DNA of 64,000 nt from Candidatus Zixiibacteriota bacterium (GTDB lineage: Bacteria > Zixibacteria > MSB-5A5 > GN15 > FEB-12). Within the stretch, counting starts at the first letter, position 1; each line of letters opens with the position of its first letter. Positions 12,759-48,928 of the stretch are shown piece by piece. A program made the position numbers and the translations under genes. The notes below the pieces were generated by a model. The model was not told where the DNA came from and made no database searches. It worked only from the letters and a program-made list of their open reading frames with translations. The stretch is taken from positions 43,979 to 107,978 of the forward strand of contig JACZXB010000002.1 in assembly GCA_022571845.1 (NCBI GenBank), written 5' to 3'.

Positions 12759-12851
12759 TTAGGTTAGAAAAGAAGATACAGTCTGAAAATTGTCGTTTTA
12801 CTTGGTTTGCCTGCCAATTTATACTTCAGTTTTACGGGCAGCAGTAGTTAT

Positions 12852-16556: not shown

Positions 16557-18667
16557 AGTTACCTCTAATTTCATGTTGCATTGCATTTCTTTTATGCTTT
16601 TTGCAGACAGGAACTGCTGCAGAAGAGATTGCGGCAAAACATTCTATTCTCTCGAACAGTTTCCTTGAAATAAAAATTGTAGACCAATACCTGATTGGTT
16701 TGTCCCCTAATGGTCTTGCGGTTTTTGCATTTGATTTAAATTCGAATTTGTTCTATCAGGTCAATCAGTTACTTCTATCTGGAACAGTTCGCAATTCAAA
16801 GCTGTTTGAATCAACTCTGGTAGTAAGGTTAGCGGACAACCAATTGAATTTTATTGATTTAAGCAGTATGCCAGAGATTGCTGTCTTGGGTGAAGTTCGT
16901 CCGGATAATAACTACAGCGACTACGCAGTGGTCGGGAATTCACTCTACCTGTCGCATTGGTTTGAGGGTATAGGCGAATATGAAATGACAAATTTCAACG
17001 CACTGAGCCGCCTTAAAACTGACAGCAGTGGCGTACTGATGACCCAGTTGGAATACCATGACGGTTATCTATATGCCCTGGACAGGTACAACGGTGTCAT
17101 TCGATATGACTTGAATGTGGGTTTCGGCAATAATGTGAACAGACTTTTAGTCAAGCAACGACCGTTCGCTTTTACTATAATTGATTCTCTGATATTTGTA
17201 TCCTTGAACAGTCAGGGCTTGTTGATTGGGAGTTTCGAAAATGAAATCGGTAAGGTTATAGATTCTATAGCCGGTGTTGTCAGCCCTGCAAAGATTTTCG
17301 AGACAAATAGCCAGCTAATACTTTTATCCGAGCGAAATGTAAGCATCTTATCAAAAGACGACTATCATCTGATAACCGAATTTCCAATAGACTTCTATCG
17401 TTTGAGTGGAGACTTACTTTTACTAAATGACAAGGAGTTCATGCTGCTGCCCAAAGAAAGCGGGGGAGTAACCCGGTTCTCTTTGGATGGAGAACTAAAT
17501 AGACTAGAGCTCTTAAGCAGGCCCGGCCCGGTTTCTACTTTAATAGTAAATTTCAACAAGATATTTACGGGTGGTACGAACAATTTTCTTGAGTGGTATG
17601 AAATTGGAGAAGCTGGAATTGTCAACTCAGGGATTATTTCTGACAAGTATCCAGGAATAACCGACGCAATCATCCATAGCAGTTATTTGTTTGCCCTGTC
17701 GTCAAACCGTAACGTCGTAGAGATATTTGCACGTGAACAGGAAAGTTATTACCTACTAGACAGTTTTGCCGTTGAAACAGGAAGTCAAACCATTTCTCTG
17801 ATTTCTACCGAGTTGACACCAGACCTAATGGTGATAGTCTCAGGTAAACATTTTATCAGCAAGTATGAGTTATCGGCCGGCGGTTATGAACTTTCCTCAA
17901 ATTGGAATTTTGAAAGCCCCATCAGTTCATATGTTGAAGTGGCTAACCGGCTTTATGTTGCTGACAGGTCCGGTGTCCTTACCGTTTATGAAATTTCAAA
18001 TGATAACTTACTGTCGGAATGTTTTAAGAGGCAGCTAAACGGCACAGCCTGGAAAATTTTGTTTCATAAAAGAAACGCAATGGTCTTTGTTCACAACACT
18101 ATGGCGATTTATGACGGCTGTAATTCTCCGGACAGCTTGATCCAGCTGGCACTACCGGTTCTCGATGCTACAATAATAGCTGACACGTTATATACGGTAG
18201 GAGCCAAAGGGATGGCAGTCTATGATATGACGAGTGGCTATCCGGAACTGGTATATAGCAGCAGTTTACGAGGCAGTCTGATCTCTGCATTCCCTGGGTT
18301 AATCGCTACCACCGATGGTAGTGCACTGCATATATACGAATTGAGATCCGATTCAAGTTCTGTTTCAATCGAACAATCAGAAGAAAACAAGTATGCCAGG
18401 TTGCTGGACAATTACCCGAACCCGTTTAATAATTCTACAGTCATTCAGTATGAACTGACAAAAGAGTCAATCGTGCACCTGACAGTTTTCAATCTGCTGG
18501 GTCAACAGGTAGCCACTCTGGTTAGCTCTCTTAAACCGGCCGGAATGCATACGGTTATCTGGAATGGCAGGGACTTAAATGGAAAAGCAATCGCCAGCGG
18601 TGTTTATTTCTATCGCCTGGAAACAGCAGAAACTGTTCTATCTAAAAAAATGCTGCTGCTTAAATGA
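16553..18667 (+). CDS. Secreted LVIVD-like repeat beta-propeller protein with T9SS C-terminal sorting domain
   Basis: 704 aa. Start overlaps the upstream stop (ATGA). Repeats such as GYLYALDRYNGVIRYDL, NRLYVADRSGVLTVYEI, DTLYTVGAKGMAVYDM. Confidence 0.75.
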   Translation: MKLPLISCCIAFLLCFLQTGTAAEEIAAKHSILSNSFLEIKIVDQYLIGLSPNGLAVFAFDLNSNLFYQVNQLLLSGTVRNSKLFESTLVVRLADNQLNFIDLSSMPEIAVLGEVRPDNNYSDYAVVGNSLYLSHWFEGIGEYEMTNFNALSRLKTDSSGVLMTQLEYHDGYLYALDRYNGVIRYDLNVGFGNNVNRLLVKQRPFAFTIIDSLIFVSLNSQGLLIGSFENEIGKVIDSIAGVVSPAKIFETNSQLILLSERNVSILSKDDYHLITEFPIDFYRLSGDLLLLNDKEFMLLPKESGGVTRFSLDGELNRLELLSRPGPVSTLIVNFNKIFTGGTNNFLEWYEIGEAGIVNSGIISDKYPGITDAIIHSSYLFALSSNRNVVEIFAREQESYYLLDSFAVETGSQTISLISTELTPDLMVIVSGKHFISKYELSAGGYELSSNWNFESPISSYVEVANRLYVADRSGVLTVYEISNDNLLSECFKRQLNGTAWKILFHKRNAMVFVHNTMAIYDGCNSPDSLIQLALPVLDATIIADTLYTVGAKGMAVYDMTSGYPELVYSSSLRGSLISAFPGLIATTDGSALHIYELRSDSSSVSIEQSEENKYARLLDNYPNPFNNSTVIQYELTKESIVHLTVFNLLGQQVATLVSSLKPAGMHTVIWNGRDLNGKAIASGVYFYRLETAETVLSKKMLLLK
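18395..18667 (+). other. T9SS C-terminal sorting domain
   Basis: DNYPNPFNNSTVIQYEL...LTVFNLLGQQV...GVYFYRLETAE...KKMLLLK, at the extreme C-terminus. Confidence 0.85.
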
Positions 18668-18669
18668 AT

Positions 18670-19851
18670 CTATTTATTCTTAGAACTGTCTGAACCAGAG
18701 TCGTTCAGTTCTCTTTGCAAAGATTGCAGATCTCGCAAGTCGACTTCAAAGTAAGTTCCGTTCTCTGTTATATCAGTGCGATTATTAATTCGCACCGGTT
18801 GACCTTCGACAGCTAACGGCAAAGTTGACATAAGAGATTTTACTCCGCTATAGGCAGTAGGGTAGTAGACGGCAGTCAGAATATGGTCCCAGCTTTTTGC
18901 TTCAGCCGGAGGAGAAAAAGAAGCCCGTCCTTCCATTCTGAATGTATAGCTGCCGGCCGGCTTAAAAAATATGCGGGTAACGTAAACCGGAAAATAGGAA
19001 GTTGATGTATTGGCGTAGCCGCCAAGTCCGGAAATTGTATAGTAGGGAAACTCCGATGGCCCCGCTTCGTCTTCATCAATCTGAATCAGCGCGTTATTTG
19101 GTCCGGTCGTGCCACTCAGTAGCAGATAGCACTTACCATGCAGCAGAATAAAGCCGTCGGCCGGGGTAGTGATGTCGACTGTTACCAGATCAGTCATGGC
19201 ATCGGTAAAAAGAGCTACCTGATCTATGTTTATGGCTGCAGTCAAGCCCGGCTCATCAAGTATCTCATGATAATCGATGGCCGACTCAGGCAGACGCACA
19301 GATTCATTGGCGCTGTCAATTCCGGATAATCTGATAGTTTCGTTCCCCAGTGAATCATAAAACGAAAGGCTGTGTTCTTCGGAGTTAGTCGCTATGGCCA
19401 GACTGTCTCTATTATCTATAGTCTTGAGATTGTAAGCAGAAAAAGCAAAAGGAGAAGCTACTAATTCAGTTCGCGGCAGGGCAGGCTCACTTGATATTAC
19501 TAACTGCAGATAAAGTTTGTCATAGTTTTGAAAATAGTCGTCACTGATAGCGTTTATTGAACCCAGCAAATGAACAAAAACTCCCCTTGCTGTTACAACC
19601 TGGGAGGTTTCTAACCACAACCTCTGTCCGGCCGTAGAGTCAGTATATAATTCGAATGACAGCTCATAGATTGAATCAGCAACAGGGTTGCCCAGGGAGT
19701 CTTCAAGAAAACCCTGATAACTTATCAGCTGTGAGGCATCTGATTCAGAAGCTACAGCAACCAGAGACATAAGCAATGCCCAAACAAAGATAATTTTGCG
19801 TTTGATAGACCGGCTGATTACCGCTAATGCTATAGTCTTGAGCGTTAACAT
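18670..19851 (-). CDS. Hypothetical secreted protein
   Basis: 393 aa. N-terminal hydrophobic signal-like segment IIFVWALLMSLVAVASE. N-terminal module ISYQGFLEDSLGNPVADSIYELSFELYTD...RLWLE resembles a recurrent module of uncharacterised surface or fibre-like proteins (from memory). Confidence 0.6.
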   Translation of the reverse strand: MLTLKTIALAVISRSIKRKIIFVWALLMSLVAVASESDASQLISYQGFLEDSLGNPVADSIYELSFELYTDSTAGQRLWLETSQVVTARGVFVHLLGSINAISDDYFQNYDKLYLQLVISSEPALPRTELVASPFAFSAYNLKTIDNRDSLAIATNSEEHSLSFYDSLGNETIRLSGIDSANESVRLPESAIDYHEILDEPGLTAAINIDQVALFTDAMTDLVTVDITTPADGFILLHGKCYLLLSGTTGPNNALIQIDEDEAGPSEFPYYTISGLGGYANTSTSYFPVYVTRIFFKPAGSYTFRMEGRASFSPPAEAKSWDHILTAVYYPTAYSGVKSLMSTLPLAVEGQPVRINNRTDITENGTYFEVDLRDLQSLQRELNDSGSDSSKNK

Positions 19852-19910
19852 ACTGCTCTTTCTTATCGGTTGTTTCTGACAATATTATTGCAGCGAGTAT
19901 ACGAGAACCA

Positions 19911-20879
19911 TCAGGCTGTTATATTCTTGTGACGCTCAAGTTCGGGGTGAATATTTTCATTGACCCCGATTGGTTTCGAGTCGCGAATACTGTGCACCAA
20001 TTCTATTGACGGCCGGGCAACTTCCAGCCCAAATCCGCTGCCCTCAAGTATGTTCTGATAAACTACCGTATGCAAGTCGGTAAATCCGGTTGAAAACTCA
20101 ATCTCGGTGCCATCAATAGAGACTGAACGAAAAGTTTTCTGTCCATCTTTGACTGAGTCCGGCGGCAGATCATTCTTGTCGATAGACAGATACCACTTTA
20201 CTGTAGCGTTCTGAAGTTCCATGAATCCTGATGATCTGGTTGGCTGGTGAAGATGAACTTCGCTGTGTTGAACTTCGCCGAATAACCACAGCAGCAGGTC
20301 AAAGAAGTGTACCCCGATATTAGTAGACAATCCGCCTGATCTTTCAGCCTGTCCCTTCCAGGACATCAGATACCAGGGGCCGCGCGAAGTTATGTAGGTC
20401 AGGTTAACTTCTTTTTTCTTTCCGGATTTTTCTTTGCCGAGCTGTTTTTTCAGTTCTATTAAAGCCGGGTGAACTCGTAACTGCAAAATAGTATATATTT
20501 TCTTGCCGCTTTCCTGTTCAAGTTCCTGAAGAGCATCAATATTCCAGGGGTTCAAAACGACAGGTTTTTCACAGATTGCGTCGGCTCCGATTCTGAGAGC
20601 CAGACGGCAATGGGCGTCGTGTAGGTAATTAGGAGAGCAGATGGAAATAAAGTCTATAGCTTTTCCCTCGCCTTCTCTTCTCAATTTGTCCAGATGTCTG
20701 TCAAACCGCTCAAATTCTGTGAAAAAACGGACATCTTCAAAGTATTTATCCAGGATACCTGCAGAATCATTGGGGTCTACGGCTGCTAACAGATTATTGC
20801 CGGTATCTTTAATCGCTTTCAAATGACGAGGGGCCACATAGCCCGAAGAGCCTGTCAATGCAAAATTCTTAGGCATCAA
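19911..20879 (-). CDS. wbpB: Gfo/Idh/MocA-family oxidoreductase, WbpB-like (UDP-GlcNAcA 3-dehydrogenase type)
   Basis: N-terminus KNFALTGSSGYVAPRHLKAIKDTGNNLLAAVDPNDS...ISICSPNYLHDAHCRLALRIGADAICEKP closely parallels the P. aeruginosa WbpB N-terminus as I remember it. Confidence 0.7.
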   Translation of the reverse strand: MMPKNFALTGSSGYVAPRHLKAIKDTGNNLLAAVDPNDSAGILDKYFEDVRFFTEFERFDRHLDKLRREGEGKAIDFISICSPNYLHDAHCRLALRIGADAICEKPVVLNPWNIDALQELEQESGKKIYTILQLRVHPALIELKKQLGKEKSGKKKEVNLTYITSRGPWYLMSWKGQAERSGGLSTNIGVHFFDLLLWLFGEVQHSEVHLHQPTRSSGFMELQNATVKWYLSIDKNDLPPDSVKDGQKTFRSVSIDGTEIEFSTGFTDLHTVVYQNILEGSGFGLEVARPSIELVHSIRDSKPIGVNENIHPELERHKNITA

Positions 20880-20998
20880 ATATCTCTCTATAATTCCCTG
20901 GAATCATTTTGTAATACAACATTTTGGCTAATAAAGCACAAAATCCTACAACATCAACAGAGAATCTTATGAAATTTCGGGAAATAGTAAGTTACTTA

Positions 20999-21223
20999 CT
21001 AAGGACAGGGGCCGGGCTGAGGGCCGCCTCTGAAAATTAAGTCGACTAGGAATGTCAAATCTAAGATATTTCCAGATATTCCGTCTCCATTTACATCCCC
21101 CTCTTCCGGACAGGCAATATCGGAGCCACCCCTGAATATCAGGTCGACAATGTAGGTCAGGTCAAGAATATCGGCTGATAGGCTATTGTCACCATTCATG
21201 TCTCCTCTTAGACCGTTACAGCA
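20999..21223 (-). other. C-terminal tandem dockerin-like module (copy A)
   Basis: CCNGLRGDMNGDNSLSADILDLTYIVDLIFRGGSDIACPEEGDVNGDGISGNILDLTFLVDLIFRGGPQPGPCP, then stop. Confidence 0.75.
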
Positions 21224-23170
21224 GCCTTCAGGAGGAGGTATCAGCGGAGATTCAAAAACAAATAACCCACTTTGCATATCTGAAACTAGTATCCTGGCCG
21301 AAGGTAAATAGGGGTATACATTCCACGCACCACTGAAGCCGAAAGTAGCAGGAGAAGTGTCAAAATGGCCTTCTTCAAACGGTGCGGTCGGATTGGAAAT
21401 ATTCCAGATTCTAAGCCCCGCCGCATAATTGGCGATTAGTAGCTTGTCACCCCTAACATAGGAGTTATGAGTCACGTTCGCCCCAGTAACTATTATATCA
21501 GCAACTTTAAAGATGCTGCTGTAATTTGAAATATCAAACACACGGGTATGATTCCCAGCAAAACCGTATTCGTCTCCGATGAATATGTAATTGCCGTCTT
21601 CGCTGAATGCTGCATTATGGGCGCCTGAGCCAGTATAATTAAAATGCCCAACCAGCTGGATTGAAGCCTTGTTGCTGACATCCAGCAAATCTATGCCGTC
21701 TCCCCAGATGCCGCAGGCAGCCAGAATGTTATTTCGAATTGCAAAATCGTGGTAGTAGAAAGTCTGATACTGACCAGCGAACTGTGGGGCGCTTGGATTA
21801 GAGATATCATAGATGACAACACCATCAGCTGACCCGCCGCCAAAATAGACATAGTCGCCGTCTACCAGACAATTATGCCTGCCTCCTGGAATTATTGATA
21901 CCTGCTGAGGGTTGCTGGGATCGCTTAAATCCACAATCATTGTAGAAGCATTTTCAGATACAACAATAGCATAATTCTGGTAAATCTTTACATCCTTTAA
22001 ATCAGCGGTGCCCGGTACAAAACCGACTTCAACCAGCGGAAAAGTATCTATATCGATAATACTCAGACCATTATCGGGGGCGCAGATAAGGGCATATTCT
22101 CTGCCAGTTGCCTGATCAACATACCCCCAGCAATCGGCGTAGTTAGAATATTTGTTCCAGTAGCCGACAAGGTTTACCTGGGTGCTCAACTCTTGTGTAA
22201 AGACAGCCGCTTCGATACTTAAGTTAATTTCAATGTCTAAGTCATCATAAGCCCTGACTTGGTAAAAGTAGGACATAAACCTGGTCAGGCCTGAATGCCA
22301 ATAATTGTTTATGGCTCCGTCCAGCACGGCTAAAGTATCAGTCGGAGGCGAAGAATTTCCCCAATAGAGCACAAAGTGATCAGCGGGGGAGCCGCTTAAA
22401 AACCAATCCAGAATGGCATCATTCTCAAAAGCAATCGCGTTCAAGCTCATCAAAGTTAATATCTCTATAGCTGCCGGCTCGGTTTCAAAATAAGTGTGTC
22501 CGGTCGCCAGCCGCGGCCACCAGGCGTAAAGAACATCCGGGTCATTAAGCAGTATATTTATGCCGGCATAGGTTGTGCCGGTAGAATCATAGGAGGAATT
22601 CATTACAAACAGGTATTCATAGTTCCCTTGTGGGCTGCTATCCGGGTCCCAATGAAAATTGACGGGAGGAGTAGAGGCATCCTCAAATTCTACAATGCAA
22701 AGATTCAGCCTGCGGGGATTAGCTGCATCTGATATGTCCCAGGCAGAACCCGGGAAAGTCCCTACTCCTGCTGAGTTGTAAGCAAAATCCCGGCGAAAGA
22801 CCTGAACGTTTGTCCAATTAGCTGTGTCACTGTCAAATTTGATTTCGACCGGTATATACTGTTCAGGGAGTATACTGCTGCCAAAGAAATCCACTCCCTT
22901 GGCCATACTTCCGCCAAAGGTCTCAAAGCCGAAATTTACACCACTCATCCATTGTGTTTCCCCAATCCAGGTAGCAAAAATTGCAGGACCATGTTCTTCA
23001 CGAAGTACTACAGATGTTTCCTGCTGCTCCTGCCAGTTTGTTGCTTTTAGAAAGAGTTTTTCATATTCGGTTAATTCGAAACCGGAATTAAGAACCGGCG
23101 GGTCTGCCTGTGCCAATGAATATAGGCAAAGAAAAGCCGCAGCTAATAGAGTTAGGAATCGTTTCGACAT
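20999..23170 (-). CDS. Secreted paralog A: novel N-terminal domain + FN3-like + LVIVD/choice-of-anchor-B beta-propeller + C-terminal tandem dockerin-like module
   Basis: Signal peptide MSKRFLTLLAAAFLCLYSLAQA (ATG at 23170, GAGGA RBS upstream). LVIVD-type repeats (GLSIIDIDTFP, MIVDLSDPSNP, GVVIYDISNPSAP, GLRIWNISNPTAP). Confidence 0.85.
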   Translation of the reverse strand: MSKRFLTLLAAAFLCLYSLAQADPPVLNSGFELTEYEKLFLKATNWQEQQETSVVLREEHGPAIFATWIGETQWMSGVNFGFETFGGSMAKGVDFFGSSILPEQYIPVEIKFDSDTANWTNVQVFRRDFAYNSAGVGTFPGSAWDISDAANPRRLNLCIVEFEDASTPPVNFHWDPDSSPQGNYEYLFVMNSSYDSTGTTYAGINILLNDPDVLYAWWPRLATGHTYFETEPAAIEILTLMSLNAIAFENDAILDWFLSGSPADHFVLYWGNSSPPTDTLAVLDGAINNYWHSGLTRFMSYFYQVRAYDDLDIEINLSIEAAVFTQELSTQVNLVGYWNKYSNYADCWGYVDQATGREYALICAPDNGLSIIDIDTFPLVEVGFVPGTADLKDVKIYQNYAIVVSENASTMIVDLSDPSNPQQVSIIPGGRHNCLVDGDYVYFGGGSADGVVIYDISNPSAPQFAGQYQTFYYHDFAIRNNILAACGIWGDGIDLLDVSNKASIQLVGHFNYTGSGAHNAAFSEDGNYIFIGDEYGFAGNHTRVFDISNYSSIFKVADIIVTGANVTHNSYVRGDKLLIANYAAGLRIWNISNPTAPFEEGHFDTSPATFGFSGAWNVYPYLPSARILVSDMQSGLFVFESPLIPPPEGCCNGLRGDMNGDNSLSADILDLTYIVDLIFRGGSDIACPEEGDVNGDGISGNILDLTFLVDLIFRGGPQPGPCP

Positions 23171-23352
23171 TGCTGTTTTCCTCAAAACTAAAGAGGTTTG
23201 ATTAGGGTCATAATTCAATGGCGGTATCTACCAGTCTAAAATAGATGATTTCCTGTCAAACGCAACCACAAATTTCTATACGGCTATATTTATGAATTGT
23301 TCGGCAGAAAAAATCTCAAAAAACGCATATCAGGAGGATTTTCAATGTTTTA

Positions 23353-23577
23353 TTAGGGGCAATCAGCTGGCGGGTCGCCGCCTCTGAAAATTAAGTCCAC
23401 TAGGTATGTCAGGTCCAGTATATCAGACTGAATGCCATCGTCATTTATGTCACTTTCAAGCGGGCACTTGCCGTTATCGCCGCTGCCCCTGAAAATAAAA
23501 TCGACTAAGAAAGTAAGGTCGAGAATATTTGCATTTGTCCCATCGGAATTAAAATCGCCTCTTTGTCCTTGACAACA
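23353..23577 (-). other. C-terminal tandem dockerin-like module (copy B)
   Basis: CCQGQRGDFNSDGTNANILDLTFLVDFIFRGSGDNGKCPLESDINDDGIQSDILDLTYLVDLIFRGGDPPADCP, then stop. Confidence 0.75.
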
Positions 23578-25839
23578 GCTGCTTGTAAACAGGAATACCA
23601 GGTCGTCAATTTCATCAATACCCGTAAAATCCAGGACACCGTCATTGTTGCGGTCGTGCAAAATACAGCAGGAAGCTGTAGAACTGGCCGGATAGTCCGC
23701 CGGATTTATAAAATTGCCGCTGCCGTCATTTTCGAATATCCTGAAGATGTTGCCGGTAAAGGAGCTTGTTACCATATCCAGGTCGCCATCTCCGTCCAGA
23801 TCACCCAGATCAATAGCTATTGCAAATGGAGGCACACTATATATTACTGCAGGAGACAGACCGCCCAGCCCGTTTCCAAAAATTACTACCGCATTATCGC
23901 CGAGGGCATTTGCAGAGACGACATCAACATTTCCGTCACCGTTAACGTCCCCGACAGCTAACATCCAGGGGCTGCCCATGGCGTCCACTTTAGATGCAAA
24001 CTCTAATCCGCCCTGGCCGTCGCCAAGCAGCAGTACTATCTCTTGGCTGCCATATGCCCCAACAAACAGATCCGGTATGCCGTCATTGTTGGCGTCGGCT
24101 GCAGCGCAGGCAAATTCACCCGATGAGCCGCTTTCAACTGGGATTACTGTAGAAAAAACTCCGTTTCCGTCATTCAAAAAAATAGTGATATTGTCGCTGC
24201 TAATATTTGAAGTACAAATATCGTCATCACCATCGCCGTCAATATCCATTACAGTTACACCCCGCATCCCAAACCCGCCGGTATATTCGACTACAGAGGT
24301 AAATCCGCCTGAACCGTCCCCAAGCAAAATCCTCAGTTTATCAGTAAAAGTTGCTCCTACGGCCAGGTCTATGATGCCATCGCCGTTAAAGTCTCCACCT
24401 TCGTTGGGACTGGCAACCCCGTTTCCGGAAAACGGATAAGTTATAAATCCAGAAAAATATCCGGTGCCGTCATTTAATGCTACCCGGACATCGTCAGCTA
24501 TCTCATTTATAATAGTAAGGTCACTGAAACCATCATCGTTTAAGTCTCCTGCATAAGCGCCATAACACTGAATATGCCCTTCGCCGCTGTCTCTTACTGT
24601 GAAAACAGTATCGAGCGTTTGGACAATAGACGAAAAATCGGATTTTGCCCAGAAACTCCAGCTATATCCGGTTGCCATCGGAGTGGCAGCAAAGGTAGTA
24701 ATTCCTTTAGACAAAGAAACAGTTATCCATTCGCCGGCAAAAAACGGTTCATCAGGAGTAAAGCGTACTTGTCTGTTCCCATTTTCGAATTGAAACAGAC
24801 CCGTAGCAGGGCCTGACCATCTTCCGAAGACTCTGAATGTCGAGCTGTTGATAGTTGACGGGTCCATTGTCGAGTCAAACTTTACTACGATGTCAGTTTG
24901 TCGCTCGGCCGCAATTTCCTGCGAGGCCGGGAATACAGAATCAACAGGCGCCAGCTGGCGAATTGTTACACTTGTTTCGAGACTAATCAAAATTTCGTTG
25001 TCCAGAGAGTCGAAAGACTTAATTCGATAAAAATTATCTGTATCCGGAGTAAGCCCGGAATGTAAGTAGGTAGTGTCAACGCCTGAGAGCTCTGCAATTA
25101 TTGAATCAGCTGCCGAGTCACCCCAGAAAAGTTTGTAATTATCGGGTTCAGTACCGGGAGAAAGCCACTGCAGATGTACTGCCAATTTTACTTGAATGGC
25201 CATAAGATTTATTCTTGGATAAATAAACAACGATGCCGGCAGACTTTCTAAAAAAGTGTGGCCATCGGCTACTCTCGGCCACCAGGCATAGAGCACATCC
25301 GGGTCGCCTGTCAAAATATTGATTTCCTCATAAGTGGTCCCAGAGGAGTCATAGGCAGAATTCATCACGAACAGATATTCGAATTTCCCGGAAGGACTAT
25401 CATCGGGATCCCATTTAAAGTTTGGGTCGGGAAGACCGCCAAAGCCGTCATCGTATTCTACTATGCAAAGATTCAGCCAGCGAGGATTAACCGGGTCGCT
25501 GATATCCCAGGCTCTGCCCGGAAAAGTGCCGACTCCGGCAGAACTGTACGGCCCCCTTCGGAAAGTTTGTACCAAAGTCCACAGAGTAGTATCAGTTTCA
25601 AACTCTATTTCGACCGGTACATAGTCATCTGTAACAACGTTGCTTCCAAAAAAATCAACACCTTTGGCAATACTTCCGCCAAAAGTTTCATAGCCAAAGT
25701 CTCTCCCGCTCATCCACTGCGGTGTTCCGGACCAAACAGCTTCAATAGGGAAGTTCTCGGCAGACAAAGCAGGGGGAGAAGTTGCCAACAAGAAAAAGAT
25801 AACGCCAAACATGTTTCTGTAATTAGAATATTGTTTCAT
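23353..25839 (-). CDS. Secreted paralog B: same novel N-terminal domain + FN3-like + SbsA/Big_5-like Ig + FG-GAP/VCBS repeats + C-terminal tandem dockerin-like module
   Basis: Signal peptide after MKQYSNYRNMFGVIFFLLATS (ATG at 25839). FG-GAP-type repeats GDLNDDGFSDL, GDFNGDGIIDLAVG, DIDGDGDDDICT, ADANNDGIPDLFVG, GDVNGDGNVDVVS, GDLDGDGDLDMVT. Confidence 0.85.
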   Translation of the reverse strand: MKQYSNYRNMFGVIFFLLATSPPALSAENFPIEAVWSGTPQWMSGRDFGYETFGGSIAKGVDFFGSNVVTDDYVPVEIEFETDTTLWTLVQTFRRGPYSSAGVGTFPGRAWDISDPVNPRWLNLCIVEYDDGFGGLPDPNFKWDPDDSPSGKFEYLFVMNSAYDSSGTTYEEINILTGDPDVLYAWWPRVADGHTFLESLPASLFIYPRINLMAIQVKLAVHLQWLSPGTEPDNYKLFWGDSAADSIIAELSGVDTTYLHSGLTPDTDNFYRIKSFDSLDNEILISLETSVTIRQLAPVDSVFPASQEIAAERQTDIVVKFDSTMDPSTINSSTFRVFGRWSGPATGLFQFENGNRQVRFTPDEPFFAGEWITVSLSKGITTFAATPMATGYSWSFWAKSDFSSIVQTLDTVFTVRDSGEGHIQCYGAYAGDLNDDGFSDLTIINEIADDVRVALNDGTGYFSGFITYPFSGNGVASPNEGGDFNGDGIIDLAVGATFTDKLRILLGDGSGGFTSVVEYTGGFGMRGVTVMDIDGDGDDDICTSNISSDNITIFLNDGNGVFSTVIPVESGSSGEFACAAADANNDGIPDLFVGAYGSQEIVLLLGDGQGGLEFASKVDAMGSPWMLAVGDVNGDGNVDVVSANALGDNAVVIFGNGLGGLSPAVIYSVPPFAIAIDLGDLDGDGDLDMVTSSFTGNIFRIFENDGSGNFINPADYPASSTASCCILHDRNNDGVLDFTGIDEIDDLVFLFTSSCCQGQRGDFNSDGTNANILDLTFLVDFIFRGSGDNGKCPLESDINDDGIQSDILDLTYLVDLIFRGGDPPADCP

Positions 25840-25897
25840 AACTTTTTCCTGTCGGCGACGTGATAACTCGCCCAAGAGCGAGTCAAAGTTTTAGCTA

Positions 25898-26119
25898 TTA
25901 TGGACAGGAGCCGGGCGCCGGGCCGCCTCTGCATATCCTGTCAATGATAAATAGCAAGTCGTCGATGTCCACTATGTTGTCGTTATTAACATCGCCTTCA
26001 TCCTCGCAGGCCGGCGCCGGTCCGCCCCTGAAAATGAAGTCAATAAGATAAACTACGTCTGTTACAGTTACGGCAGGATTTCCATCGTTGTTCATGTCGC
26101 CTCGGTTGCCTACACAACA
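25898..26119 (-). other. C-terminal tandem dockerin-like module (copy C)
   Basis: CCVGNRGDMNNDGNPAVTVTDVVYLIDFIFRGGPAPACEDEGDVNNDNIVDIDDLLFIIDRICRGGPAPGSCP, then stop. Confidence 0.75.
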
Positions 26120-28063
26120 GCTTTCTCCCGGTACGAAAGTATTGAATACATAAAGCCCGGTCTGCATATCTGAGACAATTACTTTTCCCGATTCAAAATA
26201 CGGGTAGACACCCCAGGCGCCTTCATACGAACTCATCGGAGTTTGCAAGTGAGTATCGTAAAAGGCAACTTCATAAGGGTCAGTAGGGTCTTTTACATTC
26301 CAGACGCGTAAACCGTCTACATAGTGTGCAATAAAGAGATGTTCACCCTTCACATAACTGTTGTGAGTGACAGTATTTGGGTCGACTATAATATCTGCCA
26401 CTTTGTAAATGCTGCCTAAGTTAGAAATGTCAAAGACTCTGGTATAATTACCGCTGCCAATTTCATCTCCGATAAATAGAAAGTCACCATCTTCGCTAAA
26501 GGCCGCATTATGTGCTCCCGAACCGGGGTAATTAAACTGGCCAATCAATTGTATATTGCTCTTGTCTGTTAAATCCAGAATATCTACTCCAATACCATTA
26601 ATAGCACAGGCTGCCATAGTATCATTTCTGATGGCTACATCATGGTAGCTGTAGGGACTATAGGTGTTAACATATTCAGGGTTTGCCGGATCCAATATTG
26701 AATATATTACAAGCCCTGAGGGACTTCCCCCAATTTGATAGACGTAATGTCCATCAACCAGTCCATTGTGACAGCCACTGGACATTGTTGAAACAACCTG
26801 AGGATTGGTAACATCGGATATGTCGGCTATGATGGTTGGACCACCTTCTTGAAAAATTATTGTATAGTGACTGTAAGTTTTAACATCCTTTGTGTCATTT
26901 CCACCAGCAATGAAACCTACTTCGACAAACGGTGTGTCGTTTATGTCAATAATGTACAGCCCCGAAAACCTGCCACATATTAAGGCATATTCTTTTCCAT
27001 TGGTGCTGTCAGTATAGCCCCAAATATCGCCGTAGCTGGAACTCCCGTTCCATTGGCCGAAGAGGGATAGGTTTAGAGTATTATATCTGGTTCTGGTACT
27101 TTTAACGCGACTTGAAAGCAGTTCGTTATCGAGAGAATCATACGACCTGATTTGATAGTAATAATCTATTTCTGTCATCAAGTTGGTATGAGCAAAGTCC
27201 CGAATATCCCCAGGCTGTTCTGTCAGCAATTGGTCAGGTATTGAATCTGTATCCCAGAAGATTTTGAAATTGTCAGGATTTTGACCCGGGTAGACCCAGT
27301 TGAGATAAACTGAGTCCTCAAAAGCCGTGGCCAGCAGGCCAATATAGGTATTAATAACTAATTTGGCTGTATCAGTTTCAAAAAAGGTATGGCCGTCGGC
27401 AAGCCTTGGCCACCAGGCGTAGAGATTGTCCATGTCATCCAGAAGGACATTACTATCGGCATAAGTCAGGCCGGTGCTGTCGTAGTCACTTTTCATAATT
27501 AACAGGTACTCAAACTTTCCCTGAGCGCTGTTGTCGGGGTCCCATTTAAAATTCGGGTCGGGCAGGGGGCCGCTACCATCATCATATTCAACAATACAAA
27601 CATTAAGTCGGCGCGGATTAGCAGGCTCACTTATATCCCAGACTGAGCCGGGGAAAGTACCTACACCTGCAGACCTGAAAAGGTTTTCCCTTCTAAAAAA
27701 CTGTGCATTTGACCAATTGCTACTATCTATATCAAATCTGATTTCAACAGGAATGTAGTCTGTGGAACCTAAATTACTTCCAAAAAAGTCCGCACCCTTG
27801 GCAATACTTCCGCCAAACGCTTCATAATTAAAATCAACGCCACTCATCCATTGCGGTGTGCCTATCCATTCGGCATATATCTCAATCAGGCTGTCGCCGC
27901 CGGGAAGGCTCGAACTACTTCTGTTTTCAGAATCAATGGCGCTGTTCTTTTCAGAAAAAGGCGCAAGCGGCGGGTCAGATAGTGCTGAAAAAGCAAAAAA
28001 TAAAATAGTGCAGAGTATCAGCGAAACAAGACTTATAGATTTCTTCATAAGAGGCCTTATCAT
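25898..28063 (-). CDS. Secreted paralog C: same novel N-terminal domain + FN3-like + LVIVD/choice-of-anchor-B beta-propeller + C-terminal tandem dockerin-like module
   Basis: 721 aa. Signal peptide KKSISLVSLILCTILFFAFSALS. Collinear with paralog A (GLYIIDINDTP, IIADISDVTNP, GLVIYSILDPANP, GLRVWNVKDPTDP). Confidence 0.85.
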   Translation of the reverse strand: MIRPLMKKSISLVSLILCTILFFAFSALSDPPLAPFSEKNSAIDSENRSSSSLPGGDSLIEIYAEWIGTPQWMSGVDFNYEAFGGSIAKGADFFGSNLGSTDYIPVEIRFDIDSSNWSNAQFFRRENLFRSAGVGTFPGSVWDISEPANPRRLNVCIVEYDDGSGPLPDPNFKWDPDNSAQGKFEYLLIMKSDYDSTGLTYADSNVLLDDMDNLYAWWPRLADGHTFFETDTAKLVINTYIGLLATAFEDSVYLNWVYPGQNPDNFKIFWDTDSIPDQLLTEQPGDIRDFAHTNLMTEIDYYYQIRSYDSLDNELLSSRVKSTRTRYNTLNLSLFGQWNGSSSYGDIWGYTDSTNGKEYALICGRFSGLYIIDINDTPFVEVGFIAGGNDTKDVKTYSHYTIIFQEGGPTIIADISDVTNPQVVSTMSSGCHNGLVDGHYVYQIGGSPSGLVIYSILDPANPEYVNTYSPYSYHDVAIRNDTMAACAINGIGVDILDLTDKSNIQLIGQFNYPGSGAHNAAFSEDGDFLFIGDEIGSGNYTRVFDISNLGSIYKVADIIVDPNTVTHNSYVKGEHLFIAHYVDGLRVWNVKDPTDPYEVAFYDTHLQTPMSSYEGAWGVYPYFESGKVIVSDMQTGLYVFNTFVPGESCCVGNRGDMNNDGNPAVTVTDVVYLIDFIFRGGPAPACEDEGDVNNDNIVDIDDLLFIIDRICRGGPAPGSCP

Positions 28064-28275
28064 CAGTCAAGTTGAAAGCAATTCTTGCCTACTCCAAAAT
28101 ACTAATAAAGCATATAATCGCAAACAATATTATAACGTAAGAAAGACAAGAATGTTTAGCGCAGAATTTGCTCTAGGAATTGAATTCACCAGACTTTTCG
28201 GATTATTTCGTAGACTATTTACTGAGTTCCATCGAAATTGAGATAGCTGAGACTTCAAAAAGACGAGGTTAAACT

Positions 28276-28563
28276 ATGCCCAAACACTATTTAATAATGT
28301 ATCACCCGCCCAGAGATGGATTTGCAGAAAATGCAACTCCAGATGAGTCCACAGAAGTTATGAAGCATTTTGAATATCTAAAGCAACTCCATGCAGAAAA
28401 GGTTGTGCTAATTGCAGGTAGAACTGAAGACGCCCGCTTTGGAATCGCTCTGATTGAAACAGAGAGAGAAGAAAAAGCCCGCGAGATTTTGGATAACGAT
28501 CCGGCTGTTAAAGCCAAAGTTTTTATAGCCGAGTTGCTGCCATTTAGTTTGGCGTTAAGGTAG
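28276..28563 (+). CDS. YciI-like small protein
   Basis: 95 aa. Size and the pattern HYLIMYHP...HFEYLKQLHAEKVVLIAGR...FGIALIE...AREILDNDPAV fit the YciI family as I remember it. Confidence 0.5.
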   Translation: MPKHYLIMYHPPRDGFAENATPDESTEVMKHFEYLKQLHAEKVVLIAGRTEDARFGIALIETEREEKAREILDNDPAVKAKVFIAELLPFSLALR

Positions 28564-28805
28564 CCAATAGGCATCAATTGCGCGAAACAGACTATTTATG
28601 GCCAACTGTGTTAGGGTGAGCCTCACCATCTAAAGCCGGGGGATACATTGCTGCTGCCACCAAACGTGCCACACTCGTCAAGGGCTATAACAGATTGTCA
28701 TGTATTGGATGTGTTTTATCCAATCAGGTGGGAATTGACTGATTCTGAATTCTCAGGATATGAGTCAGATTGAAAAAAACGCCAATTAGCACAGATACTT
28801 TAATA

Positions 28806-28833
28806 TTGACAGATTTCTAACTTTGATTATACT
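28806..28833 (+). promoter_or_regulatory. Putative sigma70-type promoter (TTGACA-16-TATACT)
   Basis: TTGACA at 28806..28811 and TATACT at 28828..28833, about 40 nt upstream of the 28872 start. Confidence 0.4.
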
Positions 28834-28871
28834 ACTGGTCGAGAAATAACTCAAAACCAAGAGGTGTATTC

Positions 28872-29477
28872 TTGAAAAAACTGCTTTTATTTCCTCTGAT
28901 GGCTCTGCTGGTAGTTGCCGGTTGCGGTCAGAAGGGGGAAGATGTACTCACCAACAATAACGGTACTTCGATCACAGACCCCTCAGATGGTACTCTTGAC
29001 CCCGATAACTTCGTACTCTACGCAACTACTGCCAGCTATGGCGAGGGCGCTTATTCTTCACCCGAAGGCATTGAACCGGAAAATATCAATCTGACGGTTG
29101 TCTCCGTTCAATTAAGAAAAGCTGATGATTCACTCGGCTGGATTACTGTCGCAGAGCCGAACGCAACCTATGATTTTCTGCAATTAGTAGACGGCGTTAC
29201 CGCCGAACTGGCCTCGGTAGCCATAGAGCCCGGCCGTTACACCATGTTGCGCATAATTGTGGCTGAGACCAACGAAATAGTTTTTGACGGCACCAGCGAA
29301 TCCCTGACAGTTCCCAGCGGGACAGAAACAGGTGTTAAGCTGAGTTTCAATGTGGTAATCGAGGGTGGTGAAACTTTGACAGCAACAATTGAATTCGATG
29401 CGGCCACTTCCATTATCAGCACCGAACAAGATTATTTGCTGCGCCCGGCCTTCAGACTCCTGATCGACAGCGAATAA
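28872..29477 (+). CDS. DUF4382-like lipoprotein
   Basis: TTG start. Lipobox LLVVAGCGQ. YDFLQLVDG...LASVAIEPGRYTMLRIIV...GTETGVKLSF...IEFDA matches my memory of DUF4382. Confidence 0.6.
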   Translation: MKKLLLFPLMALLVVAGCGQKGEDVLTNNNGTSITDPSDGTLDPDNFVLYATTASYGEGAYSSPEGIEPENINLTVVSVQLRKADDSLGWITVAEPNATYDFLQLVDGVTAELASVAIEPGRYTMLRIIVAETNEIVFDGTSESLTVPSGTETGVKLSFNVVIEGGETLTATIEFDAATSIISTEQDYLLRPAFRLLIDSE

Positions 29478-31244: not shown

Positions 31245-31457
31245 CTATGGATGAATTAACTCCGAACCACCACGGAAAATGAAGTCTACAAACATAGTAA
31301 GATCTACGATGCCAACTGAACCGTCGGCATTCACATCGCCTGTCTCCAGGACTAAAGGCGCATCACCACCCCTGAATATGAAGTCGACCATGAAAATAAG
31401 GTCAAGAATAGTGAAATTGCCATCCAGGTTAACATCGCCTGAAATATGTCCGATTAT
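31245..31457 (-). other. C-terminal tandem dockerin-like module (copy D, Cys-less variant)
   Basis: GHISGDVNLDGNFTILDLIFMVDFIFRGGDAPLVLETGDVNADGSVGIVDLTMFVDFIFRGGSELIHP, then stop. Confidence 0.75.
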
Positions 31458-34400
31458 GTTGCAGGTTCCGGACAATCCTCCCGACGGTCCACCGGTGTAA
31501 TCGTAGGTGACGTCGAAGGATGATACAATCTCATCCCAGATAAGAGTTCCGTCCTGTACACATAAAATATAATCAGTGACCGGGTAAGAGATATCAAGGA
31601 CCTGTCCCAAACCAGGCAGAGACTCATGAGACGCCAGTAGTTCAGTACCGCTTATCGGTACAGAACAACCGCTGGTGGGAATAACCATGGCAACTGAACC
31701 AAGATCCACATCAGAAAGTGAATAACCTAAACCCGAGGCATAGGCTTCACTGATGTATAAATGACCGGTTATCGGCTCAAGGGCATATTTCATAACTACG
31801 CGCTTAGGACAGGGGTCCATCGCCCAGGTTGGGTCGCCCTCACCAGCCACATTGATTGTATAGTCCTCAACATCACCGAAGGAAGTGGGTCCACACGGGG
31901 GCGGAGGAGCGTTATAATTCATTCTAACGCGCATTCTGGTGGGTCCCGGAAGTGCGTCACCAGGTACTACCACATTACCGGTATATGGACCTGAACCCGT
32001 AGACACGTCCAAAGTAACCGCTTCAGTCACTTCATCAAAGACGTAATCCTGATTCCAGTCGACCCAGACAGCACCTTGGTCTGTTTCGAAGTAGGGGTTA
32101 CCGAGTGTTATGATAATTGGATAGCTTCCGCCTACTTCCATAGTGGTCGAGAGCGCTGTGTAGTCACCGTACATGTCGCAACCGGTAGTGTTGTTGATAT
32201 CACCGACAGTTACGTTCGAAATATATTCATCGCAAATGTTACTTGTTGCTGAACAGTATGAAAGAACTCCCTCCTCAGCAAGGACAGTGATGGAGTATGG
32301 ACCTTCGGCGCTACTAGACGGGTCAAGCAAAACAGGGTAATAGTAGGTTCCGGCAGGCATACCCTCCCAGTATATCGTGACATTGCCGTCACCACAGTCA
32401 TCAAAGTTAAATGTGCCTGCGGTGGTGAAGTCCGTACACGGGCATCCCAGTGCCAGATTCAGCCAGGCATTACCGAAAGCGGGTGAAGTACCACAATAGC
32501 TAAGGGTAATATTCGCGGTTGCGGGGGTAGTAAATGCCTCCCATGCATGGCCACCGGCGAAGAATTCGCACTCGTGAGTGGCACAAGTGTTATCACCGGT
32601 AAAGGTGACGGGTGTGCCCAGCGTCAGTGCAGTTGGTGTGACCGATGCACAGTTATCATTTGCGGGAGGGTCACAGACGGTACACTCTATGGAAATTACT
32701 CCGTTACCGGTGTTGCTTGCGTAACCCCCGACTTCAATCAAATAGGTATTTCCTGTGACAGCGTCAAATGTGATTTGCGACTGCAGGCCACAGTAGTCAT
32801 CGTTACAGCCAATCAGAGGTGCTGTATTAGGGTCGACTCCGTCATAAATACCTAGATAGGAATCATAAGATGAGCCGCATAAACTTACTGTCGCCGGGCC
32901 TGTGCAGGTAGCCGTATAACAGTACCAGATATTAGCTGAGGTCATACATCCTCCCGGGCCATCGAAACTCGTGCCTATGGTAGTGTATGCCTGATCTACT
33001 ACGTTACCGATTTCTTCGCATTGCTCCCAATCATCGTTTTCAGGACCAGGAGCGGCTTCGGATATCGAGAGATCAAAATTAGGTATGCAAGCCGGTGACG
33101 GCCAGGTGTCTATCATGATATAATAGATGCCCGGATCCAAAGTTATTCCATAGAATCCCTTAGGGCTGCTGCTGGAGCTGGTAACTGTCGCGATACATGT
33201 CGAATTGGCGTCAGGGCATTCGTCATCAATAGACATCCCGGACCATGTCGTACCATTGGGGTCAAGGACAATATCAAGAGATACCGTTGCGCTAACTTCG
33301 ATCGAGTATATAATGTCCTCGCCGCCGTCGTACGATCCCAGACAGGTAGAGCTGTAGTTGTTACCACGACCACATGTCGTCTGACCGGCATCAAGATAGG
33401 GCAGGTCTTCCGGGATCTTAACGATTATCGGGTCAGTACAGTCATCACCGGCCGTTGGACCGGCGGACTGTGCGAAAGTCAAGTCAAAGTCAGGTATACA
33501 GTCCGGAGCTGGCCAGGTATCTACCATCACATAGTAGGTGCCCGGCTCCAAATGTACTCCAAACATCGTATGTGGCGATCCGCTGGAGCTGGTCGAGGTG
33601 CCGATACAGGTTGATGGGTCGGGAGGACAGCTGCCGTCGATCACGAAGCCGGTATAAGTGGTACCCTTGGCGTCGAGTGTTATATCGACATCGATAGCCG
33701 TTGCAACATTGACTTCATAAATAATGTCCTCGCCACCATCGTAAACGCCGAGGCAGGTGGCATCATAATAATCCAGCCTGCCGCAGGTATATTGATTGAG
33801 CAGAGTCACCGGGAGGGCTTCCGAGCCGGCGATATCGACAATTATAGGAATATCACAGTTGTCGCCATCGGCCGGAGGAGGACACTCTTCCACGTTTATT
33901 GTAAACTGGAAATCCGCCTCAATACCGTTACAGCTACCGTCACCTATGAAGACCGGGAAGTAATAGGTTGCCGGTCCGCTCAGGAAATCCCACCAGATGC
34001 GCGGGTTGGTAGAGCCGTCACCGCAATCGTCAAATGAGAAGCCTGTTCTGAGTATATAGGCGTTGCAATCGGTGCACTGGTCATATAGGACAACACCGAT
34101 ACACTCGATATCCGTGCTGGTGCCACAGAAATCTATTTCAACATTGTTACATGCATAAGGTAATTCAAATTTGTACCAAACAGCGTTCCAGTCCAGAACA
34201 CCGGGACAGTCAATTTGAGCGCCGAAGGTGTTTCCGGTGACGACGGTCGGGAACGGTCCGCTGACCAGTTCGGCTGTCGTGCACTCGTCATTTGCTCCAG
34301 AAACTGGACAGGGATCATCGGTGCAGTTGAGTCCTGAGGACCAGTTACCGCCGAGAGATCCGCAGTCGGCTTCGGTAATTTCGTCTTCACATGACGGAGC

Positions 34401-35852: not shown

Positions 35853-36074
35853 TTAGCACGGCCCGGGAGATGGTCCGCCGCGAAAGATTCTGTCCACCAG
35901 GAAAGTCAAATCAAGAATATCTGCAGGATTGTTGTCACCATTAACATCGCTTTCATTTGGGCATCCACCCGAATCGCCGCTACCTCTGAATATAAAATCC
36001 ACTGTGAAGGTCAAGTCTAAGATATCAGCATCGTCTCCATCACCATTCAGATCACCCCTGTTGCCGACACAACA
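35853..36074 (-). other. C-terminal tandem dockerin-like module (copy E)
   Basis: CCVGNRGDLNGDGDDADILDLTFTVDFIFRGSGDSGGCPNESDVNGDNNPADILDLTFLVDRIFRGGPSPGPC, then stop. Confidence 0.75.
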
Positions 36075-36578
36075 GCAAGCGTCGCCTATACCATCGCCAT
36101 CAGTATCTGCTTGACCCGGATTCGGGGTGTTCGGGCAGTTGTCCTCCGTATCCACGACACCGTCACCATCTGAATCAATTCCTATAATCGTTAAATTCCC
36201 ATTGCTAATATCCTGGTAATCAGTTCCACTATTGTCCATCCTCACACGGACTCGAACTTGATTGGATTGGTTATCTGGAACTGTCCAGTCATACGTATGA
36301 ATACTTCCAACGCCTGGATCGCCCGCAGGTAAATCCATGGCAATTACCAGCCAAGGGCCTCCAGCACCAGTAGTCGAGTACCATAAATCCCAGTTTTGCA
36401 AATTGTGCGAAATCGCAATAGACCATCGGATAGTATAAATGGAACCAACTTCGAGGGTTTCACCACCGTTGGGATCCGACAGCGTCACGTGTCCATTGGC
36501 ATTGCTGGCCAGTTGGAGCATGCTTACAATGGCTACCATAAGATAGAGAGAGCGCTTGAGATTGTGTGATTTGTTCAT
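35853..36578 (-). CDS. Small secreted protein: Ig-like N-domain + thrombospondin type-3-like Ca-binding repeats + C-terminal tandem dockerin-like module
   Basis: 241 aa with a signal peptide. DSDGDGVVDTEDNCPNTPNPGQADTDGDGIGDAC is a TSP3-type repeat. Confidence 0.8.
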   Translation of the reverse strand: MNKSHNLKRSLYLMVAIVSMLQLASNANGHVTLSDPNGGETLEVGSIYTIRWSIAISHNLQNWDLWYSTTGAGGPWLVIAMDLPAGDPGVGSIHTYDWTVPDNQSNQVRVRVRMDNSGTDYQDISNGNLTIIGIDSDGDGVVDTEDNCPNTPNPGQADTDGDGIGDACCCVGNRGDLNGDGDDADILDLTFTVDFIFRGSGDSGGCPNESDVNGDNNPADILDLTFLVDRIFRGGPSPGPC

Positions 36579-48730: not shown

Positions 48731-48928
48731 CTAGGGTGTAGGCGGAGCGGGGCCGCCTCTGTATATGAAATCAACCAGATATGTAATATCTTTGGTATCA
48801 ATTTTATAATCAAAGTTCATATCCAAAGACTGCACGGTTACTGAGCCGGGACCTCCCCGCCAAATAAAATCTATTAAAAAAACCAGATCCAAAACAGATA
48901 TTTTGTTATCGTAGTTGGCATCCCCTCT
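48731..48928 (-). other. C-terminal tandem dockerin-like module (copy F, divergent, Cys-less)
   Basis: IIRGDANYDNKISVLDLVFLIDFIWRGGPGSVTVQSLDMNFDYKIDTKDITYLVDFIYRGGPAPPTP, then stop. Confidence 0.7.

Follow-up and report, generated by a model that had tools for sequence, protein, structure and literature searches.

A mobile, unassigned N-terminal domain in tandem surface-protein genes of a Zixibacteria genome

Introduction

What kind of module opens three consecutive secreted proteins of a Zixibacteria genome, and what might it do there? The genes that raise this question, here called A, B and C, lie on the minus strand of a 64,000-nucleotide stretch of contig JACZXB010000002.1 of a Candidatus Zixiibacteriota bacterium (the window, positions 43,979 to 107,978 of the contig). 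An earlier note made from the sequence alone had described, directly after their signal peptides, a collinear domain of about 175 residues that could not be assigned to any known family, and which we call the N-domain. It had also observed that the three proteins diverge in the middle and reconverge on a dockerin-like tail, and it had proposed on these grounds that the function of the N-domain is coupled to the C-terminal tag.

Mostly uncultured, Zixibacteria, Marinimicrobia, Calditrichia and related lineages abound in sediments and oceans, and their interactions with particles and polymers are inferred almost wholly from annotation. The comparative analysis reported here establishes that the N-domain is a new family, absent from curated databases, and that it is an autonomous extracellular module with a set of polar and aromatic residues held by strong purifying selection. 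Though a new family, it is ordinary in kind: one of the accessory modules that move among the secreted surface proteins of little-studied phyla.

Results

A family absent from curated databases

The statement that the N-domain is unassignable was upheld by Pfam, NCBIfam, the PDB and Foldseek, none of which provided a match to a curated family or a solved structure. With the full proteins A, B and C as queries, Pfam and NCBIfam returned nothing on the N-domain at E <= 1; the only NCBIfam model to match was TIGR04312, at residues 341/342-639/640 of A and C, and residues 1-340 were devoid of any match. NCBIfam had no match either for a family member that consists of little more than the N-domain (P0162). 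Searching Pfam with 49 diverse members singly at E <= 1 gave only noise (best E = 0.023, one member each for four unrelated families), as did the family consensus at E <= 10 (Phage_TAC_13, 15 bits against 28.8). A single N-domain compared with PDB sequences found chance-level matches only (ZNF593, E = 1.5). A match of a 49-sequence profile to CagT in the PDB (E = 0.037) was judged to be due to chance, given its low score, its restriction to a single protein and its unrelated biology. Searches of the literature on LVIVD proteins, on choice-of-anchor proteins and on Zixibacteria in conjunction with dockerins turned up no description of the N-domain.

The structure prediction and Foldseek search that the earlier note had advised led to the same outcome. 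A model of the C N-domain computed with AlphaFold2 from a 6-sequence alignment was unusable (predicted local distance difference test, pLDDT, 43.7); the model obtained from a 49-sequence alignment reached a pLDDT of 95.6 and a predicted template modelling (TM) score of 0.92, with all five models at or above a pLDDT of 94.8. The predicted fold is almost all beta, comprising 12 strands and one short helix, and it had no Foldseek match at E <= 1e-3 among 350,542 PDB chains or in BFVD. The near-matches, none of them significant (E = 0.15 to 1, TM <= 0.3), were mostly jelly-roll or lectin-type folds and included PL7 alginate lyases, galectins, the fungal lectin CGL3, GH131, accessory domains of GH43 and viral capsid proteins. 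Judged from the predicted model, these near-matches would lend the N-domain a flavour and no assignment, and the predicted fold is possibly new.

Distribution and architectures

Word-indexed homologue searches yielded only 8 and 32 matches, mostly fragmentary, the named ones in the set of 8 being Zixibacteria. Searches of this type badly understate the family, and an exhaustive profile search was therefore needed. Carried out with HMMER over 1.84 billion cluster representatives, it recovered 326 representatives at E <= 1e-3, of which 184 also pass E <= 1e-10 and 59 pass E <= 1e-30. Counted as clusters of 50% sequence identity, the family has at least 326. The survey of taxonomic spread, also proposed in the earlier note, thus reveals that the N-domain is no orphan, but is widespread across the Fibrobacteres-Chlorobi-Bacteroidetes (FCB) superphylum, with members in Zixibacteria, Marinimicrobia, Calditrichia, Ignavibacteriales, Rhodothermales, Bacteroidia and Eisenbacteria, the last with one member seen (Candidatus Eisenbacteria). 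No copy was found in the plasmids of PLSDB by tblastn of the consensus.

The position of the domain was counted in 121 near-full-length matches drawn from the best 150 representatives and the 8 word-indexed matches. It starts within the first ~130 residues in 52 of them and further in for the remaining 69, most of which have the N-domain ending 105-150 residues before the C-terminus, the place occupied by a sorting domain of the type IX secretion system (T9SS) in those that were scanned. Three main architectures can be distinguished. In the first, which is that of A and C, proteins of ~720-820 residues consist of a signal peptide, the N-domain, an FN3 domain, an LVIVD propeller and a tag. A scan of one genome per GTDB species, conducted with the 6-sequence alignment A2 and for this reason biased in its recovered loci toward close relatives, found this architecture in Zixibacteria, Neomarinimicrobiota, Calditrichia, Ignavibacteriales and Rhodothermales; the same scan found one metagenome-assembled genome (MAG) labelled Acidobacteriota in which an N-terminal N-domain is present and Pfam has no match.

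In the second architecture, the N-domain occupies about residues 700-870 of proteins that are ~1000-1100 residues long, and a T9SS sorting domain follows it directly. The ~700-residue N-terminal region of these proteins forms a separate conserved family, with no match in Pfam, NCBIfam or the PDB; kinship of this region with LVIVD was considered and rejected (P = 0.31). At five independent loci (L034, L036, L038, L039 and L040) a gene of this class has a TonB-dependent receptor gene as its neighbour, and in L034, L036 and L040 the order is TonB-dependent receptor (CarboxypepD_reg, Plug and barrel, ~970 residues), ~1000-residue protein and ~345-residue PorV-like outer-membrane protein. The third architecture is made up of proteins of ~212 residues that comprise only a signal peptide, the N-domain and a short C-terminal tag. 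The stand-alone members P0160-P0170 end in a conserved tag of the form C[DE]PS..EP[TS]TWG.IK.L[FY]R (a TTWGxIKxLYR-type tail), which may be a C-terminal sorting signal. Rarer partners of the N-domain are leucine-rich repeats (P0028) and the right-handed beta-helix modules NosD and DUF1565 (P0127 and P0137), once together with a dockerin.

All members examined are secreted or surface proteins: the intact N-termini that were read are hydrophobic, signal-peptide-like leaders, and full-length members end in a sorting tag, be it a dockerin, a T9SS sorting domain or the short tail just described. The domain is likewise autonomous, as the earlier note had surmised, for it occurs at the N-terminus, internally or alone, it is combined with many partner domains and it has been exchanged between paralogues in one lineage.

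Some further observations were made in the loci of the family. An unrelated neighbour of a stand-alone member in L002 ends in EQTTWGQVKILFR (L002 8001-8648 and 9381-10097). A tandem array of stand-alone copies in L002 was entertained and rejected, the neighbours being unrelated small proteins that bear dockerins or tags. In L001 (8001-9526, GCA_016708025.1) a gene of 299 codons for the N-domain is followed by a separate LVIVD fragment of 146 residues, and in L040 (5166-8134, GCA_964414825.1) a member of the ~1000-residue class is broken up into two genes that overlap, of 713 and 295 residues; both are probably frameshifts, pseudogenes or assembly errors.

Conserved residues

Conservation was computed over 154 non-identical N-domains and is given in C-domain numbering, in which residue 1 corresponds to residue 61 of protein C. 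Three positions are 100% conserved (E100, W115 and Y135), and six more are conserved in 95-98% of the sequences (N95, Y142, E126, D153, D84 and R92, with E126 at 97%); W13 reaches 94%, and several glycines are conserved too. None of the invariant positions in this set is a His, Cys, Ser or Lys, and the N-domain has no internal repeat. Its invariant and near-invariant residues are acidic, polar or aromatic, as is typically the case where beta-sandwich lectins and carbohydrate-binding modules (CBMs) bind sugars or Ca2+. Retention of the same residues throughout the three architecture classes speaks for a single conserved functional site, and the persistence of the same invariant residues across 154 sequences from several phyla points to purifying selection on a functional domain.

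The gene array in the window

The collinear N-domain that follows the leader peptides of A, B and C is evident both in a three-way alignment, where all four motif blocks quoted in the earlier note can be seen, and in tblastn searches, and the paralogy of the three genes is far beyond chance (Table 1). Pairwise identity across its ~180 residues is 63-66%. Used as a query against the window, the A N-domain matched 22451-22984 (E = 1e-122), 25222-25746 (E = 6e-76) and 27347-27880 (E = 6e-77) at 64-66% identity, with nothing else below E = 3, and hence no fourth copy. The ATG starts chosen in the earlier note are corroborated by metagenomic homologues of A (P0003 and P0004) and of C (P0001), which begin at the same residues.

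The N-domain itself is as real as had been claimed, at ~180 residues, but the block shared by the three proteins does not end with it. The next ~90 residues are also homologous in A, B and C, at 34-36% identity, and constitute an FN3 domain: the corresponding profile (A5) matches FN3 domains of titin, fibronectin and receptor tyrosine phosphatases at E = 5e-19 to 1e-9, and a Rhodothermales homologue has a weak Pfam fn3 match. The description of an array that keeps both ends and swaps the middle is therefore accurate but incomplete, since the conserved N-terminal end consists of the N-domain plus FN3 and, FN3 being common to A, B and C, the divergence of the middle starts only after it. Beyond that point, Pfam and NCBIfam bear out the domains that had been read from the sequence, namely TIGR04312 and LVIVD in A and C, and Big_5 and FG-GAP in B. 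Both TIGR04312 scores exceed the cut-off of 100 bits, and B has no match to this model; for LVIVD (Pfam cut-off 20.2 bits) A lies above with 80.7 bits and C below with 17.0.

The genes are separated by gaps of 58 (C/B) and 182 (B/A) nucleotides, in neither of which a scan of 19800-29000 found terminator-like sites. Over the scanned region promoter-like sites were no commoner than in shuffles, and terminator-like sites were fewer.

Table 1. Features of the A, B and C genes, in positions of the window, and of the three-gene unit that contains the ~1000-residue class, in positions of the respective loci (aa, amino acids).
Feature	Positions	Strand	Description	Basis
Gene A	20999..23170	-	723 aa: signal peptide, N-domain, FN3, LVIVD / choice-of-anchor B propeller, dockerin	Open reading frame and domain matches
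A predicted Sec signal peptide	23105..23170	-	aa 1-22, MSKRFLTLLAAAFLCLYSLAQA	Inferred by reading the sequence
A N-domain	22451..22984	-	aa 63-240	tblastn and profile envelope
A FN3	22181..22450	-	aa ~241-330	Paralogue similarity and profile A5 against solved FN3 domains
A choice-of-anchor B / LVIVD beta-propeller	21254..22147	-	aa 342-639	TIGR04312 171.6 bits; LVIVD E = 4.7e-23
A dockerin-type tail	21002..21223	-	aa 650-723, two DxNxDG loops, each with a helix	Alignment A4; profile against solved type I dockerins
Gene B	23353..25839	-	828 aa: signal peptide, N-domain, FN3, Big_5, FG-GAP propeller, dockerin	Open reading frame and domain matches
B N-domain	25213..25749	-	aa 31-209	tblastn and profile envelope
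B FN3	24946..25212	-	aa ~210-298	Paralogue similarity and profile match
B Big_5 Ig-like domain	24652..24945	-	aa 299-396	Pfam PF13205, E = 6.1e-10
B FG-GAP repeat region	23584..24582 (approximate boundaries)	-	~aa 420-752	FG-GAP_3 E = 1.9e-43, 6 stretches
B dockerin-type tail	23356..23577	-	aa 755-828	Paralogue similarity, tail alignment and tail profile
Gene C	25898..28063	-	721 aa: signal peptide, N-domain, FN3, LVIVD / choice-of-anchor B propeller, dockerin	Open reading frame and domain matches
C N-domain	27344..27883	-	aa 61-240; first sequence of alignments A2 and A3; sequence modelled	tblastn and profile envelope
C FN3	27074..27343	-	aa ~241-330	Paralogue similarity and profile match
C choice-of-anchor B / LVIVD beta-propeller	26144..27043	-	aa 341-640	TIGR04312 163.2 bits
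C dockerin-type tail	25901..26119	-	aa 649-721	Pfam Dockerin_1 20.3 bits; profile against solved dockerins
Three-gene unit	L034 965-8031; L036 1023-8036; L040 2170-9252		MAGs; L034 and L036 labelled Bacteroidia	

The dockerin tail and the choice of anchor

The C-terminal tail of ~74 residues in A, B and C contains two DxNxDG loop-helix units. Six genes of the window carry such a tail, all on the minus strand: besides A, B and C, they are 31245-35303 (GEVED), 35853-36578 (TSP_3) and 48731-51103 (an S8 peptidase with PKD), and both loops are invariant in the six. Calling the tail dockerin-like was correct, inasmuch as a profile of the six tails matches solved type I dockerins of clostridial and ruminococcal origin at E = 8e-6 to 3e-3, the best being 4fl4_A (E = 8e-6) and the others including 1daq and 2mte. 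As single sequences the tails fall around the Pfam cut-off of 22.9 bits, from C, just under it (20.3), to 48731-51103, above it (25.2); A and B have no Pfam dockerin match. The tail shares with type I dockerins (PF00404) the duplicated segment of ~22 residues, each with a DxNxDGxxxxxD loop and a helix. It differs from them in its flanking Cys pairs (CCxG...CP), in an FRGG motif and in its host, a Gram-negative-type FCB organism with no cellulosome context.

The proposed coupling between the N-domain and this tail must be rejected, because the tail is found on unrelated genes of the window and because the tag switches between phyla. Within the window, the tail of A is 68-69% identical to that of the TSP_3 protein, as against 55-63% to the tails of its paralogues. 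Proteins that combine the N-domain with FN3 and LVIVD end in a dockerin in Zixibacteria, but those of Rhodothermales, Calditrichia and Marinimicrobia carry a T9SS sorting domain (Por_Secre_tail or FlgD_ig) in its stead. The tag therefore goes with the export and anchoring system of the lineage, and not with the N-domain. T9SS tags are present in the window as well, on two plus-strand genes (12807-16556, a second S8 peptidase, and 16553-18667), and the occurrence of both types of tag in the window indicates that one genome uses two surface-display tags side by side.

Proteins with LVIVD repeats were first described as archaeal and bacterial cell-surface proteins (PMC2447325). Through their propeller regions, A and C are members of the choice-of-anchor B / LVIVD group (TIGR04312, PF08309), and they conform to its name in that one protein body is fitted with lineage-dependent anchors, dockerin in Zixibacteria and T9SS elsewhere. 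The models of this group, however, span only residues ~340-640, and the N-domain lies outside them and occurs also in proteins without LVIVD.

The array in related genomes

Three Zixibacteria MAGs come closest to the genome of the window, and the C-B-A array is kept with one-to-one orthologues in at least three Zixibacteria MAGs. Outside the N-domain, the orthologues of C (B21_1 and B77_1) are 81-89% identical to it, those of B (B21_3 and B77_2) 83-94% and those of A (B21_4 and B77_3) 81-87%. Such one-to-one correspondence across MAGs implies that the duplications are old, predating these species, and that each copy has been retained. In MAG B21T1B10 the array includes a fourth paralogue, of FG-GAP type (L003 8018-10534), and downstream of the A orthologue it is followed by a GFO/IDH/MocA oxidoreductase 96% identical to that of the window. 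Tandem pairs are also found in Rhodothermales and in other Zixibacteria (L026 and L011).

One gene departs from this orderly pattern. The body of B77_1 (L005 268-2433, MAG B77T1B8) matches C at 89% identity, whereas the N-domain of this protein is closer to that of A (84% identity) than to that of C (only 73%). A C-type body is thus paired with an A-like N-domain, which indicates that the N-domain has been exchanged between tandem paralogues as a unit, through gene conversion or recombination at the level of the domain.

Two additional observations concern the surroundings of the array. In B21T1B10 an insertion separates the DUF4382 gene from the C orthologue (L003 899-5097, as compared with window 28064-28871), and it contains ABC-transporter-like genes (an ATPase and an FtsX-like permease) and a surface protein of 659 residues. 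The window encodes at 18670-19851, on the minus strand, a protein of 393 residues with no Pfam match, in which an N-terminal motif of the form ...L[IT][ST]YQG.L... is followed by a short beta-rich stretch. The same motif is present in the 659-residue protein (L003 3118-5097), and the two may represent another uncharacterised secreted family.

Discussion

The reading of the N-domain that we tentatively favour, at somewhat less than an even chance, is that of a head that binds a ligand, probably a glycan, possibly with the help of Ca2+, at the far end of surface-tethered proteins. A Sec signal peptide would export A, B and C, and the C-terminal dockerin would tether them to a putative cohesin-bearing partner at the surface; FN3 (together with Big_5 in B) would serve as a spacer, the LVIVD or FG-GAP propeller as a second interaction platform, and the N-domain, at the end farthest from the cell, would bind the target. 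Binding as opposed to catalysis, the nature of the ligand, the dependence on Ca2+ and the cohesin partner are elements of this scheme that we infer. In its support can be cited the secreted context of the domain, its modular mobility, its non-catalytic partners, its conserved acidic, polar and aromatic residues and its all-beta model, as well as the conservation of the C-B-A array with each old duplicate kept. Most partner domains are modules for interaction or scaffolding that have no catalytic role (LVIVD, FG-GAP, leucine-rich repeats, FN3 and Big_5), and the right-handed beta-helix modules NosD and DUF1565 are typical of polysaccharide-active proteins. The setting of the ~1000-residue class, beside a TonB-dependent receptor in five loci and with a PorV-like protein following in three of them, fits substrate capture at the outer membrane.

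Known systems provide partial parallels for such a role. Like beta-sandwich lectins and CBMs (concanavalin-like jelly rolls, galectins, PL7 lyases), the N-domain has ~180 residues, is predicted to be all-beta, is secreted and modular, displays conserved aromatic and acidic residues and is borne by multidomain proteins with dockerin or T9SS tags; it has, however, no significant structural (E >= 0.15, TM <= 0.3) or sequence match to them. In adjoining a receptor in five loci, the ~1000-residue class recalls the SusE/F-like and surface glycan-binding proteins that go with TonB-dependent transporters in Bacteroidota, but it is T9SS cargo and not a lipoprotein, it has no SusD-like gene and no similarity to Sus proteins, and the genes of the window lack an adjacent TonB-dependent receptor altogether.

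Several points weigh against a ligand-binding head. The N-domain has no experimental or homology-based link to any ligand, and its resemblance to lectins in Foldseek is insignificant (best E = 0.15, TM <= 0.3). The TonB-receptor context belongs to an architecture class other than that of the window genes. Finally, the invariant E100 and E126, on neighbouring strands of the predicted model, would suit a small glycoside hydrolase equally well.

This last point leads to a rival that we consider unlikely, though worth keeping in mind, in which the N-domain is a small catalytic domain, for instance a new Glu/Asp-based glycoside hydrolase or lyase of beta-sandwich type, and the other modules are accessory to it. 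The invariance of E100, the conservation of E126 at 97% and that of D84, D153, R92, N95, Y135 and Y142 would all be expected of such an enzyme, stand-alone secreted forms of 212 residues exist, and one class sits beside TonB-dependent receptors in the manner of enzymes from polysaccharide utilisation loci. PL7 alginate lyases and GH131 are among the top Foldseek near-matches, but these are insignificant, and there is no significant sequence or structure match to a CAZyme or to any other enzyme family. Moreover, 180 residues is at the small end for enzymes of this kind, and partners that are mostly non-catalytic binders are the usual setting of a binding module, rather than that of the only enzyme in a protein. 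A ligand of its own would be dispensable if the N-domain were a diverged derivative of the LVIVD propeller, or a cap or assembly element acting as its structural partner, an idea that we regard as improbable. In its favour is an hhalign comparison of the N-domain profile with 26 propeller regions (P = 8.8e-5, probability 59.7%), against controls with reversed sequences (P ~ 0.55) and with the FG-GAP region (P = 0.63). The match centres on a hairpin, xWD[IV]S[DN]PxxPRRLN, that resembles the LVIVD blade signature and is the most conserved hairpin of the N-domain; in C it corresponds to residues 140-160 (GSVWDISEPANPRRLNVCIVE, window 27584-27646). In hmmsearch, N-domain positions 36-95 fall repeatedly on propeller blades, but the individual secondary matches are insignificant (i-E, the independent E-value, > 1). 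N-domain, FN3 and LVIVD do form the commonest N-terminal architecture, in five phyla; the N-domain nevertheless occurs without LVIVD in gene B, in the ~1000-residue class, in beta-helix and leucine-rich-repeat proteins and in stand-alone proteins. Given this occurrence, the lack of internal repeats and a compact model whose listed Foldseek near-matches are jelly-roll or beta-sandwich folds, with no propeller among them, we read the likeness as a shared motif, or at most as very remote ancestry.

It could also be argued that the similarity of the three domains is merely the product of recent duplication or gene conversion, and as such uninformative on function. The N-domain of the first paralogue in B77T1B8, 84% identical to that of the third, does reveal that conversion between copies happens. 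The paralogues nonetheless differ by ~35% within the N-domain, each of A, B and C has orthologues of its own that can be told apart in three MAGs, and the same invariant residues recur across 154 sequences from several phyla, so that this explanation is largely refuted. The probability that remains falls to a role of the N-domain outside those proposed here.

A more ambitious proposal, which we put forward as speculation and deem rather doubtful, is that the N-domain is a new fold and an FCB-specific family for the recognition or cleavage of glycans, with E100, E126, D84 and D153, together with W115, Y135 and Y142, forming its site, and that it takes part in substrate capture at the surface, either on propeller-bearing, dockerin-anchored proteins or beside TonB-dependent transporters. 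If glycan binding or cleavage were to prove true, the N-domain would add to the CBM or CAZy-type families a new one, drawn from phyla with few cultured members, and would offer a handle on substrate capture.

The wide use of dockerin tags by Zixibacteria on non-cellulosomal proteins, alongside T9SS, would imply an undescribed cohesin-dockerin surface display in a Gram-negative-type lineage. More generally, the N-domain sits on many surface proteins of Zixibacteria, Marinimicrobia, Calditrichia and their relatives and is at present invisible to annotation pipelines. A family definition for it would allow hundreds of surface proteins now listed as hypothetical to be better annotated.

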